From a virus (Duplodnaviria; Heunggongvirae; Uroviricota; Caudoviricetes), in IMG/VR virus record IMGVR_UViG_2540341028_000011, positions 1-5,647 of that record: a DNA stretch of 5,647 bases, one strand, 5' to 3'. The notes beneath the pieces are model-generated. The model was not told the DNA's origin. It ran no database searches and saw only the letters and a list, made by a program, of their open reading frames with translations. Position numbers and translations under genes: made by a program. This document shows, piece after piece, positions 1 to 5,647 of this stretch (the stretch's first letter is position 1; each line of letters begins with the position of its first letter).

Positions 1-2
1 AT

Positions 3-188
3 CTCTGCTCTCATTGCCGTAAAACATGGCAACTACAGTTCACTTACACCGCCTCTCAGCCCGGTACGCACCAGAAAATCATTGATATGGCCATGAATGG
101 CGTCGGATGTCGCGCCAGTGCACGCATTATGGGCGTTGGCCTCAACACGGTTTTACGTCACTTAAAAAACTCAGGCCGCAGTCGGTAA
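3..188 (+). CDS. insA: IS1 InsA (5'-partial, C-terminal 61 codons, stop TAA 186-188)
   Basis: Frame 3 translates to [61 protein letters not shown], which matches the InsA C-terminus. It is not in the ORF track because the start lies upstream of the window. Confidence 0.85.
162..170 (+). promoter_or_regulatory. IS1 programmed -1 ribosomal frameshift site (A6C slippery run)
   Basis: TTAAAAAAC lies just before the insA stop, at the position where IS1 makes the InsAB' fusion. Confidence 0.7.
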
Positions 189-202
189 CCTCGCGCATAT
201 AA

Positions 203-610
203 CCGGGCAGTGATGTGATTGTCTGCGCTGAAATGGACGAACAGTGGGGCTACGTCGGTGCTAAATCACGTCAGCGCTGGCTGTTTTACGCGTATGACAG
301 GATACGGAGGACGGTTGTGGCGCACGTCTTCGGTGAACGCACTCTGGCCACACTGGAGCGTCTTCTGAGCCTGCTGTCGGCCTTTGAGGTCGTGGTATGG
401 ATGACGGATGGCTGGCCGCTGTATGAATCACGCCTGAAGGGAAAGCTGCACGTTATCAGCAAGCGTTACACTCAGCGCATTGAGCGACATAATCTGAATC
501 TGAGACAACATCTGGCAAGGCTGGGACGGAAGTCACTGTCGTTCTCAAAATCGGTGGAGCTGCATGACAAGGTCATCGGGCATTATCTGAACATAAAACA
601 CTATCAGTAA
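203..610 (+). CDS. insB: IS1 insB reading frame (catalytic part of the InsAB' transposase); cut off from insA by a TAA at 200-202
   Basis: Frame 2 [29 protein letters not shown]...[15 protein letters not shown] (track 215..610) matches IS1 InsB. The frame is normally entered by a -1 frameshift at the A6C site, but here it hits TAA 11 codons after that site. Confidence 0.85.
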
Positions 611-611
611 G

Positions 612-1643
612 TTGGAGTCATTACCCGCCGACTGCCTGGAATTTATCTGGTCGTTACCCGAAAATTCTGTTGACCTGATAGTCACGGACCCGCCGTACTT
701 TAAAGTGAAGCCTGAGGGCTGGGATAACCAGTGGAAGGGCGACGATGATTACCTGAAGTGGCTGGAGCAGTGTCTGGCGCAGTTCTGGCGGGTGCTGAAA
801 CCTGCCGGAAGTCTTTACCTGTTCTGTGGTCATCGCCTGGCATCTGATATCGAAATCATGATGCGTGAACGCTTCAGTGTGCTGAACCATATTATCTGAG
901 CGAAGCCGTCCGGACGCTGGAACGGATGCAACAAGGAAAGCCTGCGGGCGTATTTCCCCGCCACAGAGCGCATTCTGTTCGCGGAACATTATCAGGGGCC
1001 GTACCGCCCGAAAGATGATGGCTATGAGGCGAAGGGCAGTGCACTGAAACAGCATGTGATGGCCCCGCTGATTTCTTACTTTCGTGATGCGCGAGCTGCC
1101 CTGGGGATAACGGCAAAACAGATTGCAGATGCCACAGGAAAGAAAAACATGGTGTCGCACTGGTTCAGTGCCAGTCAGTGGCAGTTGCCGAATGAAAGCG
1201 ATTATCTGAAATTACAGGCGCTGTTTGCCCGGGTGGCAGAAGAGAAGCATCGGCGTGGTGAACTGGAAAAGCTCCACCACCAGCTGGTGGATACGTATAC
1301 CTCACTGAACCGGCAGTATGCGGAGCTGCTGAGTGAATATAAACATCTGCGGCGGTATTTTGGCGTGACGGTGCAGGTGCCGTATACCGATGTGTGGACG
1401 CATAAACCGGTGCAGTTCTATCCCGGGAAACATCCGTGCGAAAAACCGGCAGAAATGCTGCAGCAGATAATCAGCGCTAGCAGTCGTCCGGGTGACCTGA
1501 TTGCAGATTTTTTCATGGGGTCGGGTTCGACAGTGAAAGCGGCACTGGCGCTCGGGCGTCGTGCAATTGGCGTTGAGCTGGAGACTGAACGTTTTGAGCA
1601 GACGGTTCGGGAAGTACAGGATTTAGTCAGCCAGAACGGATGA
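612..1643 (+). pseudogene. Phage-type beta-class DNA (probably N6-adenine) methyltransferase, disrupted: 5' end replaced by the IS1 terminus and an in-frame TGA at 897-899
   Basis: Track ORFs 612..899 and 1056..1643 are in the same frame (frame 3), and the only stop between them is TGA 897-899. Motif IV DLIVTDPPY is near the N-terminus and the AdoMet-binding motif DFFMGSGST near the C-terminus, which is the beta-class order. The first five codons (TTG-GAG-TCA-TTA-CCC) are IS1 terminal sequence, so the native start is lost. Confidence 0.8.
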
Positions 1644-1645
1644 TA

Positions 1646-1674
1646 TTGAAGAATTAATTACGCGTCGTTATTAT
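1646..1674 (+). promoter_or_regulatory. Sigma70-type promoter for the tRNA cluster (-35 TTGAAG 1646-1651, 17 bp spacer, -10 TATTAT 1669-1674, GC-rich discriminator GCGGC)
   Basis: The hexamers and spacing put the predicted start about 1681-1683, just before the first tRNA at 1684. A GC-rich discriminator is typical of stable-RNA promoters. Confidence 0.55.
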
Positions 1675-1683
1675 GCGGCTCCC

Positions 1684-1759
1684 GGCCCTTTAGCTCAGTG
1701 GTGAGAGCGAGCGACTCATAATCGCCAGGTCGCTGGTTCAAATCCAGCAAGGGCCACCA
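1684..1759 (+). tRNA. ileZ: tRNA-Ile2-like, anticodon CAU (lysidine type; elongator Met not strictly excluded), 76 nt with encoded CCA
   Basis: Cloverleaf reads directly: acceptor GGCCCTT/AAGGGCC, anticodon loop CTCATAA, T-loop GGTTCAAATCC, 3' ACCA. It closely resembles E. coli ileX from memory, including C4 and C5 in the acceptor stem. Confidence 0.85.
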
Positions 1760-1766
1760 TCACATA

Positions 1767-1843
1767 CCGCCATTAGCTCATCAGGAAAGAGCGCCAGCCT
1801 TCGAAGCTGGCTGCGCGGGGTTCAAGTCCCCGATGGCGGTCCA
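1767..1843 (+). tRNA. argN: tRNA-Arg, anticodon UCG (decodes CGA, rare in E. coli), 77 nt with encoded CCA
   Basis: Acceptor CCGCCAT/ATGGCGG, anticodon stem CCAGC/GCTGG with loop CTTCGAA, T-arm CGGGG-TTCAAGT-CCCCG, then discriminator plus CCA. Confidence 0.85.
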
Positions 1844-1856
1844 TTATCTGCATCAT

Positions 1857-1933
1857 GCGTTGTTAGCTCAGCCGGACAGAGCAATTGCCTTCTAAGCAAT
1901 CGGTCACTGGTTCGAATCCAGTACAACGCGCCA
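1857..1933 (+). tRNA. argO: tRNA-Arg, anticodon UCU (argU-like, decodes AGA/AGG), 77 nt with encoded CCA
   Basis: Acceptor GCGTTGT/ACAACGC, anticodon stem ATTGC/GCAAT with loop CTTCTAA, T-arm ACTGG-TTCGAAT-CCAGT, 3' GCCA. It resembles E. coli argU from memory. Confidence 0.9.
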
Positions 1934-1948
1934 CACTTATTTTCCCTG

Positions 1949-1973
1949 GCTCGCTTTTGCGGGCTTTTTTTTT
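1949..1973 (+). terminator. Rho-independent terminator closing the tRNA cluster
   Basis: Hairpin GCTCGC-TTTT-GCGGGC (6 bp with one G-U pair) followed directly by a run of nine T. Confidence 0.6.
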
Positions 1974-2170
1974 AAATGTCTCACAATTCAGACGGTTGAC
2001 TGTTGTCTGGTTTGCGGGGAGTTTGTTAAAAGAAACTGGCATGGTGAATCCCCCTGTGCGGAGGGGCAATCAGCGAGTAGGTATATGGGATAATCGCGGA
2101 TTCAGGTGCTGGTACTGAATTCACCGGGAGGCACCCGGCACCATGCAATGGCACATAGCGCCACTCTCCA

Positions 2171-2197
2171 GCCCCTCTCCGGAGGGGCTTTCTTGTG
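2171..2197 (+). terminator. Rho-independent terminator-like hairpin (plus strand)
   Basis: Perfect 7 bp stem GCCCCTC/GAGGGGC with tetraloop TCCG, followed by TTTCTTGTG. Confidence 0.55.
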
Positions 2198-2200
2198 GGC

Positions 2201-2229
2201 AAAAAAAGCCCGCGCTGGGAGACGCGGGC
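2201..2229 (-). terminator. Rho-independent terminator on the minus strand, convergent with the one at 2171-2197
   Basis: The plus strand reads A7-GCCCGCG-CTGGGAGA-CGCGGGC, so the minus strand reads a 7 bp GC stem followed by TTTTTTT. Confidence 0.55.
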
Positions 2230-2422
2230 GGCAAGGAATAAACAATAAAACGTGAAGTAATATTTCAGCTGGCGAATAATACCCCATAGTAGTCACTCTG
2301 CGCAACTGCGCGGTCTTTTTCGAATTGCGGGCTGTCGTCTCTCTTCTGCCATTGTCCTGTAACTTCCGGACTTCAGCCCGCTCCTCATTTTACTCACAAT
2401 ATTATCCCGGCCGGGAGGATTC

Positions 2423-3502
2423 ATGGCTTTTAAACACTATGATGTTGTCAGGGCGGCGTCGCCGTCAGATCTTGCGGAAAAGCTGACACATAAACTGAAA
2501 GAGGGCTGGCAGCCGTTTGGTAGTCCGGTGGCCATAACCCCTTATACTCTGATGCAGGCGATTGCAGCAGAAGGTGCAGTAATCAGCGCCACCAGCGACC
2601 CGGAGTATTACTTTGTTGTGGTTCTGGCAGGGCAGTCAAACGGCATGTCGTATGGTGAAGGCCTTCCGCTGCCGGGGACATATGACCGTCCGGACCCGCG
2701 TATTAAGCAACTGGCGCGTCGCAGTACGGTGACACCGGGCGGTGCAGCATGCAAATATAACGACATCATTCTGGCGGACCATTGTCTGCATGATGTGCAG
2801 GACATGAGCCGTCTTAACCATCCGAAAGCGGACCTGTCAAAGGGGCAGTACGGAACCGTGGGGCAGGGGCTGCATATCGCCAAAAAACTGCTGCCGTTTA
2901 TACCGGCGAATGCGGGCATTCTGCTGGTTCCGTGCTGTCGTGGTGGTTCAGCGTTCACCACCGGAGCTGATGGCACATACAGTGACGCGAGTGGTGCCTC
3001 GGAGAATTCAACCCGCTGGGGTGTGGACAAGCCGCTGTATAAGGACCTTATCGGTCGAACAAAAGCGGCACTGGAGAAGAACCCGAAAAATGTGCTGTTT
3101 GCCGTGGTGTGGATGCAGGGGGAATTTGATTTTGGCGGTACGCCGGCAAATCATGCCGCACAGTTTGGTGCGCTGGTTGATAAATTCCGTGCAGACCTGG
3201 CGGATATGGCAGGCCAGTGCGTCGGTGGCTCTGCTGGCGGTGTTCCCTGGATATGCGGGGACACGACGTATTTCTGGAAGCAGAAGAACGAATCCACGTA
3301 CCAGACGGTGTACGGCAGCTATAAAAATAAAACGGAAAAGAATATCCATTTCGTACCGTTCATGACCGATGAGAACGGGGTGAATGTGCCGACGAACAAA
3401 CCGGAAGAAGACCCGGACATTCGGGGTATCGGTTATTACGGTTCGAAATGGCGTGACAGCTCAGCCACCTGGACGTCACAGGACAGGGCGAGCCATTTCT
3501 AG
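2423..3502 (+). CDS. nanS-p: Prophage NanS-p-like sialate 9-O-acetylesterase (N-terminal DUF1737-like segment plus SGNH/SASA esterase domain), 3'-truncated by IS2
   Basis: 359 aa ORF with GGAGG 6 nt upstream of the ATG. The GQSNGMSYGEGLPLP block and the following sequence resemble E. coli NanS/YjhS and the prophage esterase found downstream of stx, from memory. The stop TAG 3500-3502 is the first three bases of the IS2 left end. Confidence 0.8.
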   Translation: MAFKHYDVVRAASPSDLAEKLTHKLKEGWQPFGSPVAITPYTLMQAIAAEGAVISATSDPEYYFVVVLAGQSNGMSYGEGLPLPGTYDRPDPRIKQLARRSTVTPGGAACKYNDIILADHCLHDVQDMSRLNHPKADLSKGQYGTVGQGLHIAKKLLPFIPANAGILLVPCCRGGSAFTTGADGTYSDASGASENSTRWGVDKPLYKDLIGRTKAALEKNPKNVLFAVVWMQGEFDFGGTPANHAAQFGALVDKFRADLADMAGQCVGGSAGGVPWICGDTTYFWKQKNESTYQTVYGSYKNKTEKNIHFVPFMTDENGVNVPTNKPEEDPDIRGIGYYGSKWRDSSATWTSQDRASHF

Positions 3503-3837
3503 ACTGGCCCCCTGAATCTCCAGACAACCAGTATCACTTAAATAAGTGATAGTCTTAATACTAGTTTTTAGACTAGTCATTGGAGTACAGATGATTGATG
3601 TCTTAGGGCCGGAGAAACGCAGACGGCGTACCACACAGGAAAAGATCGCAATTGTTCAGCAGAGCTTTGAACCGGGGATGACGGTCTCCCTCGTTGCCCG
3701 GCAACATGGTGTAGCAGCCAGCCAGTTATTTCTCTGGCGTAAGCAATACCAGGAAGGAAGTCTTACTGCTGTGGCCGCCGGAGAACAGGTTGTTCCTGCC
3801 TCTGAACTTGCTGCCGCCATGAAGCAGATTAAAGAAC
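3500..3837 (+). mobile_element. IS2 left-end fragment (left terminal repeat TAGACTGGCCCCCTGAATCTCCAGACAACC...), interrupted by IS629
   Basis: The terminal sequence and the start of the InsC reading frame match IS2 from memory. The element breaks off at about 3837, where the IS629 terminal repeat begins. Confidence 0.85.
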
Positions 3838-3839
3838 TG
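3591..3839 (+). pseudogene. insC: IS2 orfA (InsC) N-terminal fragment, about 83 codons, truncated by the IS629 insertion
   Basis: [56 protein letters not shown]...MKQIKEL follows a GGAG ribosome-binding site. After KEL the frame runs into the IS629 repeat, giving NRPGNPGD*. The track start at 3546 is probably an upstream over-extension. Confidence 0.85.
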
Positions 3840-3891
3840 AACCGCCCCGGGAATCCTGGAGACTAAACTCCCTGAGAAAGAGGTAAACAGG

Positions 3892-4218
3892 ATGACTAAA
3901 AATACTCGTTTTTCCCCCGAAGTCCGTCAGAGGGCGATTCGTATGGTTCTGGAAAGTCAGGGCGAATATGACTCACAGTGGGCGGCAATTTGTTCCATTG
4001 CCCCAAAGATTGGCTGTATACCGGAGACTCTGCGTGTCTGGGTACGCCAGCATGAGCGGGATACCGGAGGCGGTGATGGCGGGCTCACCACCGCTGAACG
4101 TCAGCGTCTGAAAGAGCTGGAACGTGAAAATCGTGAACTGCGCCGCAGTAACGATATCCTTCGCCAGGCTTCCGCTTATTTTGCGAAGGCGGAGTTCGAC
4201 CGCCTCTGGAAAAAGTGA
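3892..4218 (+). CDS. IS629 OrfA (IS3-family helix-turn-helix / leucine-zipper transposase subunit)
   Basis: 108 aa [33 protein letters not shown]...[36 protein letters not shown] with AAGAGG ribosome-binding site. An A-rich run GGAAAAAG sits at the orfA end, where IS3-family frameshifting occurs. Confidence 0.9.
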
Positions 4219-4826
4219 TGCCACTGCTGGATAAGCTGCGTAAGCTGTACGGGGTCGGACCGGTATGCAGTGAACTACATATTGCCCCGTCAACGTATTA
4301 CCACTGTCAGCAACAGCGACATCATCCTGATAAACGCAGTGCCCGTGCGCAGCGCGATGACTGGCTGAAGAAAGAGATACTGCGCGTATACGATGGGAAT
4401 CATCAGGTATACGGTGTGCGTAAAGTCTGGCGTCAGTTGTTACGGGAAGGTATCAGAGTGGCCAGATGCACTGTGGCACGTCTCATGGCGGTTATGGGAC
4501 TTGCCGGTGTTCTCCGGGGTAAAAAGGTCCGTACGACCATCAGCCGGAAAGCCGTTGCCGCAGGCGACCGCGTAAACCGTCAGTTCGTGGCAGAACGACC
4601 TGACCAGCTGTGGGTGGCTGATTTTACTTACGTCAGCACATGGCAGGGCTTCGTCTATGTGGCGTTCATTATTGATGTGTTTGCCGGATACATCGTGGGG
4701 TGGCGGGTCTCATCGTCCATGGAAACGACATTCGTGCTGGATGCTCTGGAGCAGGCGTTATGGGCCCGTCGACCGTCCGGCACGGTCCATCACAGTGATA
4801 AAGGTTCTCAGTATGTATCGCTGGCC
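4215..4826 (+). pseudogene. IS629 OrfB (DDE transposase catalytic domain), 3'-truncated with the third catalytic residue region missing
   Basis: Frame -1 relative to orfA. Contains WVADFTYV and HHSDKGSQY, the first two acidic-residue motifs of an IS3-family DD(35)E domain. The ORF then reads 4 codons into the next element (VSVN*), so the E-containing region is absent. Confidence 0.85.
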
Positions 4827-4912
4827 GTAAGCGTAAACTGACCGCCGTATGTAGCCATTAAGCCTGTATTGGTAACGTAGGTGCCCACCTTTTCAACTAG
4901 TGGACACCTGTT

Positions 4913-5332
4913 ATGGAACAGAAAGCATTATCTGCAGAACCCCGCAGATCATTTTCAAATGAGTTTAAACTTCAAATGGTTAAACTGGCTTCACAACCAG
5001 GAGCCTCTGTTGCCCGTATTGCCCGGGAACACGATATCAATGATAACCTGCTGTTCAAATGGCTCAGGCTCTGGCAGAACGAAGGGCGCATATCGCGGCG
5101 TCTTCCGGTAACAACCTCTTCTGACACTGGCGTTGAATTATTACCTGTGGAGATAACGCCGGATGAGCCGAAAGAACCTGTGGCTGCTCTTACTTCGTCT
5201 TTATCTACTCAGACTACTGTTAGTGCCAGCTCCTGCAAGGTGGAGTTCCGTCACGGTAACATGACGCTGGAAAATCCTTCACCAGAGCTGCTCACAGTGT
5301 TGATCCGTGAACTGACCGGGAGGGGACGATGA
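4913..5332 (+). CDS. tnpA: IS66-family accessory protein TnpA (helix-turn-helix)
   Basis: 139 aa ORF MEQKALSAEPRRSFSNEFKLQMVKLASQPGASVARIAREHDINDNLLFKWLRLWQNEG..., with the stop overlapping the next start. Confidence 0.8.
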   Translation: MEQKALSAEPRRSFSNEFKLQMVKLASQPGASVARIAREHDINDNLLFKWLRLWQNEGRISRRLPVTTSSDTGVELLPVEITPDEPKEPVAALTSSLSTQTTVSASSCKVEFRHGNMTLENPSPELLTVLIRELTGRGR

Positions 5333-5647
5333 TCTCACTCCCGTCAGGCACCCGCATCTGGCTCGTTGCTGGGATAACCGATATGCGTAAGTCTTTCAAC
5401 GGGCTGGGTGAACAGGTACAGCATGTGCTGAATGATAATCCCTTCTCCGGTCACCTGTTCATCTTCCGTGGCCGACGGGGTGACATGATTAAAATCCTGT
5501 GGGCTGATGCTGATGGTCTGTGCCTGTTCACCAGACGCCTGGAGGAAGGCCAGTTTATCTGGCCTGCTGTGCGTGACGGCAAGGTATCCATTACCCGCTC
5601 GCAACTGGCAATGCTCCTCGATAAGCTGGACTGGCGTCAGCCAAAAA
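5329..5647 (+). CDS. tnpB: IS66-family TnpB (Orf2), 5' part; open to the window edge, so absent from the ORF track
   Basis: Frame 1 from ATG 5329 translates without a stop to MISLPSGTRIWLVAGITDMRKSFNGLGEQVQHVLNDNPFSGHLFIFRGRRGDMIKILWADADGLCLFTRRLEEGQFIWPAVRDGKVSITRSQLAMLLDKLDWRQPK, recognisable as IS66 TnpB. Confidence 0.85.
   Translation, partial: MISLPSGTRIWLVAGITDMRKSFNGLGEQVQHVLNDNPFSGHLFIFRGRRGDMIKILWADADGLCLFTRRLEEGQFIWPAVRDGKVSITRSQLAMLLDKLDWRQPK

Follow-up and report, generated by a model that had tools for sequence, protein, structure and literature searches.

The late-region 'moron' slot of lambdoid (Stx-type) prophages and the RNA genes beside it are documented in the annotation of phage 933W (Plunkett 1999), in Tree et al. 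(2014) and in a 2026 preprint by Zhu, Shabalina and Storz. The Stx2 prophages, represented here by 933W, Sakai Sp5 and the Stx2c prophage of strain OkiPb01694, carry a tRNA triplet, a terminator to the left of the cargo, the small RNA STnc100 to its right and the esterase gene nanS-p downstream. STnc100 has been reported 75 nt downstream of stx2B (PMC12370729), as was also seen in 933W here, and has been equated with EcOnc27/sRNA103 (PMC12711010). Eleven copies are present in EDL933, one of them confirmed by northern blotting (PMC5331693), and the RNA has been related to PasD, whose position is upstream of the sialic acid esterase gene (2026 preprint by Zhu, Shabalina and Storz). The Sakai Sp4 allele, EcOnc05, is bound by Hfq, with an Hfq CRAC peak and a northern band of ~222 nt (Tree et al. 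2014, PMC4104026). The two convergent RNAs that follow the cargo site have likewise been described (Tree et al. 2014); their minus-strand member EcOnc08/21/42 measures ~271 nt in Sp4 and Sp15 of Sakai, whereas AsxR and AgvB (RF02703/RF02702; Tree et al. 2014), which lie on the minus strand, abut the 3' end of STnc100 and end in a terminator and U-tract, are 51-60 nt long. Toxin-free arrangements include Sakai Sp4 (ileZ1-argN1-argO1, EcOnc05, EcOnc08/EcOnc21, ECs_1088), with an empty slot and 489 bp from argO to the esterase gene, and the phages Nil3, Lahn2, TL-2011a and vB_EcoP_phi296/315/367, in which the tRNAs are followed by STnc100 and nanS-p. Existing publications cover the stx slot, its unoccupied form in stx-negative phages and in prophages of O157, and the neighbouring pair of convergent small RNAs.

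The DNA analysed here (the window, 5,647 nt) is the entire contig AERO01000124.1 of Shigella flexneri CDC 796-83 (PMC5429569), as a look-up of the exact protein sequence of its truncated esterase shows. The serotype 6 chromosomes CP055124.1 and CP026811.1 match positions 1-4826 with 100% identity, and no complete E. coli genome matched the window at a coverage of at least 80%, which is consistent with a Shigella origin; when the IS1/methyltransferase junction was searched for exactly in the GTDB species-representative genomes, 0 matches were returned. The gene order methyltransferase-tRNAs-nanS-p and its coordinates, initially proposed from the letters alone, are borne out by ORF listing, ARAGORN, Rfam and Pfam, and the gap between the last tRNA and the nanS-p start (1934-2422) does measure 489 bp. 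We are highly confident that the interval 1646-2422 is an unoccupied allele of the moron slot in an IS-eroded S. flexneri prophage remnant, and the arrangement is a common and ordinary one. The window contains the following features.

1..625, plus strand: IS1, cut by the left contig end, with its right inverted repeat ending at 625 (InsA/InsB ORFs; PF03400 DDE_Tnp_IS1)
626..1643, plus strand: DNA N6/N4 methyltransferase pseudogene (PF01555 on both halves)
1646..1674, plus strand: pT, putative tRNA promoter, TTGAAG-17-TATTAT (consensus scan; aligns to the 933W feature 'pT; putative tRNA promoter')
1684..1759, plus strand: tRNA ileZ, anticodon CAT (ARAGORN, Rfam; sequence identical to 933W ileZ)
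1767..1843, plus strand: tRNA argN, Arg anticodon TCG (ARAGORN, Rfam)
1857..1933, plus strand: tRNA argO, Arg anticodon TCT (ARAGORN, Rfam; identical to the Sakai Sp4, Nil3 and Stx2c prophage copies)
1948..1974, plus strand: Rho-independent terminator ending the tRNA cluster, with a stem at 1948-1965 and then a T-run (in 933W, 'terminator upstream of the stx genes')
1975..1976, no strand: cargo (moron) insertion point, unoccupied in the window (placed by flank alignments to Stx2 prophages)
2010..2200, plus strand: STnc100-family small RNA gene, EcOnc05 allele (Rfam RF02076)
~2201..2475, minus strand: predicted EcOnc08/21/42-type RNA, convergent with STnc100 (terminator, probe match, homology)
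2298..2313, plus strand: conserved hairpin CTGCGCAACTGCGCGG followed by TCTTTTT (nearly invariant in 4/4 aligned sequences)
2423..3502, plus strand: 5' part of nanS-p, 359 codons, with DUF1737 and most of the SASA esterase domain (Pfam)
3500..~3837, plus strand: IS nest, IS2 left-end fragment
~3838..4826, plus strand: IS nest, partial IS629/IS1203 with a frameshift pseudoknot at 4173-4289
4827..5647, plus strand: IS nest, IS66-family tnpA/tnpB

Both sides of the interval are homologous to the flanks of stx, as alignments to the Stx2c prophage (locus L001), 933W (L002) and Sakai Sp5 (L009) demonstrate. Window 1501-1974 corresponds to L001 3876-4350 (left flank, 92%) and window 1977-2576 to L001 5683-6307; taken through the stxB-to-nanS-p intergenic region and nanS-p itself, the right flank aligns over window 1977-3499 to L001 5683-7275 at 88%, in agreement with alignment A2. 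The stx2c cassette (L001 4351-5682; 1,332 bp comprising the stx2 promoter, stxA and stxB) lies exactly between the two flank matches, and a 1.3-kb stx2AB cassette distinguishes the Stx2 prophages from the window at 1975/1976. The left breakpoint immediately follows the tRNA terminator, GGCTCGCTTTTGCGGGC with its T-run, which is the last element common to the window and the stx2 left flank (alignment A1), and homology restarts at TGTCTCACAATTCAG (alignments A1/A2). Judged from these alignments, the slot amounts to a single position, 1975/1976, and not to a 489-bp interval: on the left, 41 bp belong to the tRNA terminator, and on the right, ~446 bp hold two previously described small-RNA genes and the nanS-p leader, all of which Stx1 and Stx2 phages likewise have downstream of stx. 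The true insertion site is one junction directly behind the terminator of the tRNAs, at which other genomes carry TerB/DUF3927 or DUF3927/IraM. A tblastn search of the window with Stx1A/B, Stx2A/B and Stx2cA/B gave a best E value of 0.65 (positive control, E = 0), blastn of the stx cassettes against the window yielded only chance matches of 12-18 nt, and six ORFs in the spacer were all without a match in Pfam. The sequence-only reading, which had called the interval the empty, stx-negative form of a cargo hotspot, is upheld for the stx-like flanks and the lack of any toxin-like sequence; its equation of the 489 bp with the empty slot has to be given up.

Among the described elements, Sakai Sp4 is 96.6% identical to the window in the tRNA block, 99.1% in STnc100, 92.3% in the minus-strand module and 98.9% in the nanS-p leader. 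It differs in having an HTH/AraC-like protein upstream instead of the methyltransferase, in keeping Q and a CPBP protease moron upstream, and in an esterase coding sequence only 72.7% identical to that of the window. The Stx2c prophage has the same methyltransferase (94.9%), and the segment 1644-1974, with ileZ-argN-argO and the terminator directly left of the cargo site, is 92-93% identical to 933W and the Stx2c prophage. Where the window has the EcOnc08/21/42-type module, the minus strand of 933W and Sp5 encodes AsxR, an anti-sRNA of 53 nt. In Nil3 the junction layout is base for base that of the window, whereas phi296 has 28 extra bp there; Nil3, Lahn2, TL-2011a and phi296/315/367 differ further in being complete phages or derived from them, in having Q directly upstream of the tRNAs and in lacking the large methyltransferase.

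The segment between argO and nanS-p had been described as only hairpin terminators and AT-rich spacer, a description that fails on composition and content alike. Its G+C content is 51.5% versus 53.2% for the window, the low-G+C part being restricted to 1934-2009 (42%), and it contains an STnc100 match together with a convergent minus-strand RNA module. The STnc100 match (RF02076) reaches 139.4 bits against a cut-off of 47, with an E value of 1e-31 over the full-length model (1-206), and the element possesses its own terminator at 2170-2189. The EcOnc05 northern probe (Tree et al. 2014, PMC4104026, Table S3) is an exact antisense match to window 2068-2102; the northern probes of that study were mapped rather than its Hfq peaks, NC_002695.2 being offset from the published table by ~+140 nt at Sp5 and ~0 at Sp4. 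Across seven divergent alleles, the STnc100 structure comprises 34 consensus pairs, three of which are changed on both sides (compensatory), with one cell broken. STnc100 lies directly to the right of the cargo in all variants checked, namely stx1 (VT1-Sakai), stx2a, stx2c, a hypothetical protein with TerB and DUF3927, DUF3927 with IraM, and none. The view that the spacer is functionless filler agrees with its four terminator-like hairpins, where 1.2 are expected, but it is left with practically no chance by the G+C content, the 139-bit Rfam match, the exact match of an experimentally validated probe and the strong sequence conservation across prophages irrespective of cargo. An absence of ORFs is not the same as emptiness, and the DNA downstream of stx is small-RNA coding and moves with the slot whatever its cargo.

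It might also be supposed that the spacer encodes a small protein, given a 32-codon ATG ORF at 2143-2241 with a GGAGG 11 nt upstream. An ORF opens at a conserved ATG in 8/8 alleles examined (31-46 codons), a Shine-Dalgarno-like motif is present, and ribosome footprints have been recorded on some STnc100 copies in EDL933 (PMC5331693). However, the peptides are unconserved, with frame shifts between alleles and no Pfam match; the GGAGG and the ATG both fall within invariant RNA stems of the STnc100 consensus, and ribosome coverage is low on most STnc100 copies (PMC5331693), so that a coding role is very improbable. Several weaker Rfam matches in the window, all below their cut-offs and situated on terminators or IS junctions, were taken as chance: OmrA-B at 2201-2289 on the minus strand (25 bits), anti-hemB, AaHKsRNA20, and AfaR at 4784-4919 (50 bits versus 100).

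The second small RNA is encoded on the opposite strand. Its strong terminator, a stem at 2229-2208 followed by a U-tract of seven U extending to 2201, abuts the STnc100 end. The EcOnc08/21/42 probe corresponds to window 2275-2309 at 29 of 35 positions in plus sense, which means that it detects a minus-strand RNA; the remaining 6 of the 35 set the module apart from the Sakai allele that was probed. Over 2201-2330, the identity to Sp15, Sp4 and several Stx2 prophages amounts to 91.5-96.9% (91.5-92.3% for Sp15 and Sp4). Probe homology, a strand opposite to nanS-p and a terminator beside STnc100 together place the module with EcOnc08/21/42. On the published size of ~271 nt, which comes from a northern in another strain, the 5' end would lie at ~2475, and the RNA would overlap the ribosome-binding site and start codon of nanS-p and be antisense to the nanS-p start. 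Like AsxR and AgvB, the module sits on the minus strand against the STnc100 3' end with a terminator and U-tract, yet it lacks their conserved ~42-nt 3' region (…UUGCCCGAACCCAYUCGGGC…). No covariance-model match to either family was obtained in the window at E up to 1, whereas the same Rfam search on 933W found AsxR at this position with 88 bits. Single-sequence fold stability is only modestly above that of shuffles (z -1.8 and -2.0), and a scan for consensus sigma-70 promoters found none for either small RNA. A ~70-nt minus-strand sRNA starting from a promoter TTGCGC-18-TATTAT at ~2305-2276 was considered and rejected, as the published probe overlies that promoter and the RNA is ~271 nt long. 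The convergent pair occurs with stx1, stx2, other cargo or none in the slot, and both RNAs would act as Hfq-binding regulators, like their O157 homologues.

The unoccupied junction is far from rare. Using an 86-bp query confined to the junction (1930-2015) and requiring a contiguous match at 95% identity or more, it was found in 932 of 5,426 complete E. coli genomes, whose serotypes include O157:H7, O145, O26, O111, O121, O104:H4 and O80 and which also comprise avian and urinary isolates; Sakai Sp4, FRIK804 and the stx-negative phage Nil3 have the same empty junction, and the empty allele is also found in Lahn2, TL-2011a and phi296/315/367. This distribution bears on whether the slot formerly held stxAB and lost it by precise deletion, which would make the locus a secondarily emptied Stx prophage and not a never-occupied allele. 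Flanks 88-92% identical to the Stx2c prophage and a methyltransferase-tRNAs-nanS-p order of the Stx2c type would suit such a history, and the Stx2 cassette ends with short similar heptamers, ATATCTG and TAATCTG, which recombination could use. Nevertheless, no stx remnant of any length was found in the window, an identical junction is spread over many serotypes and phage Nil3, and a gut-metagenome relative with an intact Q shares it. Moreover, STnc100 to the right of the junction is 99% identical to that of the stx-free Sp4 and only ~70% identical to the Stx2 prophage alleles. Secondary precise loss is consequently unlikely, with a slim chance at best.

Both protein genes bordering the RNA genes have decayed. 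IS1 stands in place of the prophage DNA that ran from xis as far as codon 14 of the methyltransferase gene, Q included, and homology to the methyltransferases of relatives begins at 626. In a global alignment with the intact 352-aa gene of the Stx2c prophage, the first 41 nt are lost to IS1 and TGG is changed to TGA at 897-899, with no indels; the TGG is kept in the Stx2c prophage and in L017, a human-gut metagenome contig. On the other side, nanS-p is cut by IS2 at 3499/3500, its stop codon TAG being the first three bases of IS2. The 359-aa ORF contains DUF1737 and SASA and lacks DUF6645, which shares a single frame with those two domains in the prophage 9-O-acetyl sialic acid esterase NanS-p; a DUF6645 fragment forms a separate ORF beyond the IS elements in complete genomes. 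The truncated product aligns to residues 14-313 of 337 of NanS (PDB 3PT5) and ends ...SHF, 24 residues short of the end of the NanS-homologous domain. In NanS, the catalytic residue His301 (Rangarajan et al. 2011) is probably the counterpart of the His in this terminus. Neither the methyltransferase decay nor the IS2 cut had been noticed in the sequence-only reading.

In the serotype 6 chromosomes, the order is potC', int, xis, IS1, methyltransferase remnant, tRNAs, sRNAs, nanS-p' and IS2/IS629, after which come the part of nanS-p that encodes DUF6645, the genes for holin, lysozyme and Rz, more IS elements and what is left of a tail-fibre-assembly gene. In Stx-converting lambdoid phages, late transcription through the slot is driven by Q, pR' and qut from upstream. 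The wider prophage, in which Q and lysis genes were to be looked for, supplies the latter (holin, lysozyme, Rz) and not the former, since no gene with an Antiterm domain is present in the prophage of the complete S. flexneri 6 genomes. That no Q lies between the methyltransferase and the tRNAs was correctly observed but is to be expected, as Q in relatives is upstream of the methyltransferase, where the window has IS1. With Q and pR' lost, the block would be transcribed from local promoters only, pT at 1646-1674 being the candidate. L017 has the same empty slot and IS2 cut, together with intact Q and methyltransferase; it shows 0 differences from the window over 1993-3573 and 65 differences clustered at ~1000-1900. 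Its state indicates that the emptiness of the slot and the split in nanS-p are both older than the IS1 deletion and the nonsense mutation.

IS elements and a nonsense mutation have cost the prophage Q, the early region, methyltransferase and nanS-p, yet the RNA-only block of 0.8 kb, with pT, its three tRNAs for rare codons and both small RNAs, remains whole and is 100% identical over the 4.8 kb shared by carriers. It has therefore been considered whether the block is domesticated in S. flexneri serotype 6, a possible but doubtful proposal. If it were true, the block could provide decoders of AUA/AGA/AGG to AT-rich genes on the virulence plasmid, and phage small RNAs could enter the host Hfq network, with the minus-strand RNA variant of the window orphaned from its nanS-p target. 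More generally, the Shigella copy shows how RNA genes can outlive protein genes in a decaying prophage.

The proposal that the tRNAs have their own promoter is supported by the promoter-like site at 1646-1674, whose position is annotated as pT in 933W. The three tRNAs score 58-72 bits in Rfam and would decode the rare AUA, AGA/AGG and CGN codons. ARAGORN assigns ileZ to Met, while the 933W, Sakai and RefSeq annotations give tRNA-Ile (AUA), and the argN allele of the window is unlike those of all ten loci compared.

The cargo junction, at which Stx2 prophages carry stx2AB and which is unoccupied in the window, holds other sequences elsewhere. The stx-negative phage phi296 (L003 6371-6398) contains 28 additional bases, ATTACAGGAAAGACACTGGACAGTGAAATG, precisely at this junction (window 1973/1974), and two loci with other cargo carry the following in the same region:

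L011 2892-4182: hypothetical protein, TerB and DUF3927
L012 3311-5055: DUF3927, IraM and IS1

Together, these contents indicate that the point is used by several different insertions. The same prophage is present in a Nepalese human-gut metagenome contig (L017 8204-11151, compared with window 626-3573). The differences between the two sequences are mosaic, with none across 1993-3573 and 65 clustered at approximately 1000-1900, a pattern in the aligned sequences that suggests recombination with a breakpoint adjoining the cargo junction. Both carry the identical IS2 insertion, whereas Q and the methyltransferase gene are intact in the metagenome relative, and argN differs between them at five positions. 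The window argN (1767-1843) is unlike all copies compared (933W, Sp4, Sp5, Nil3, phi296 and an Stx2c prophage) and scores 58 bits against the Rfam tRNA model, above the 43-55 bits of those copies.

On either side of the junction, the window contains genes in decay:

612-1643: methyltransferase remnant with two disabling lesions
3497-3502: IS2 insertion in nanS-p, directly after the codons for ...SHF

In the methyltransferase remnant, the first 41 nt are replaced by IS1, and a single nonsense change at 897-899 converts TGG to TGA, whereas TGG is retained in the metagenome relative; the remainder has no indels and keeps its frame. The NanS-p domain with homology to PDB 3PT5 is cut by IS2 24 residues short of its end, and the truncated ORF takes its stop codon (TAG) from IS2 bases 1-3. 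In complete S. flexneri 6 genomes, the DUF6645 C-terminal piece forms a separate ORF past IS2/IS629.

The spacer downstream of the junction includes two further features:

2143-2241: 32-codon ATG ORF within the small RNA gene STnc100, with GGAGG 11 nt upstream
2298-2313: hairpin CTGCGCAACTGCGCGG followed by TCTTTTT, nearly invariant

In each of the eight alleles examined, the ORF at 2143 has an uninterrupted reading frame of 31-46 codons. Its peptides are frameshifted or unconserved between alleles, and its ATG and GGAGG belong to invariant RNA stems. The hairpin is also nearly invariant in 933W, although the anti-sRNA AsxR there replaces the adjacent minus-strand module; it may be a plus-strand terminator, or else part of the minus-strand RNA or of its promoter.

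At the right end, the terminal 821 bp of the window, IS66-family tnpA/tnpB, start at junction 4826/4827, which joins an internal IS629 position to the IS66 end. In complete genomes, these 821 bp lie approximately 8.5 kb away and inverted (L013 20929-20109), and the IS629 copy at the corresponding site is full length. The junction may be a draft-assembly mis-join from repeat collapse, or else strain-specific. An AfaR match on the minus strand across it (4784-4919) reaches 50 bits against a threshold of 100 and is probably IS-derived similarity. The nest also includes an intact frameshift signal:

4173-4289: ALIL frameshift pseudoknot of an IS3-family element, 116 bits

For the compared Sakai prophages, Tree et al. 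2014 (Table S2) give coordinates that match NC_002695.2 at Sp4 and fall approximately 140 nt below it at Sp5, so the two genome versions differ between 1.18 and 1.27 Mb, and mapping the Hfq peaks of that study to the current RefSeq record requires correcting this shift.
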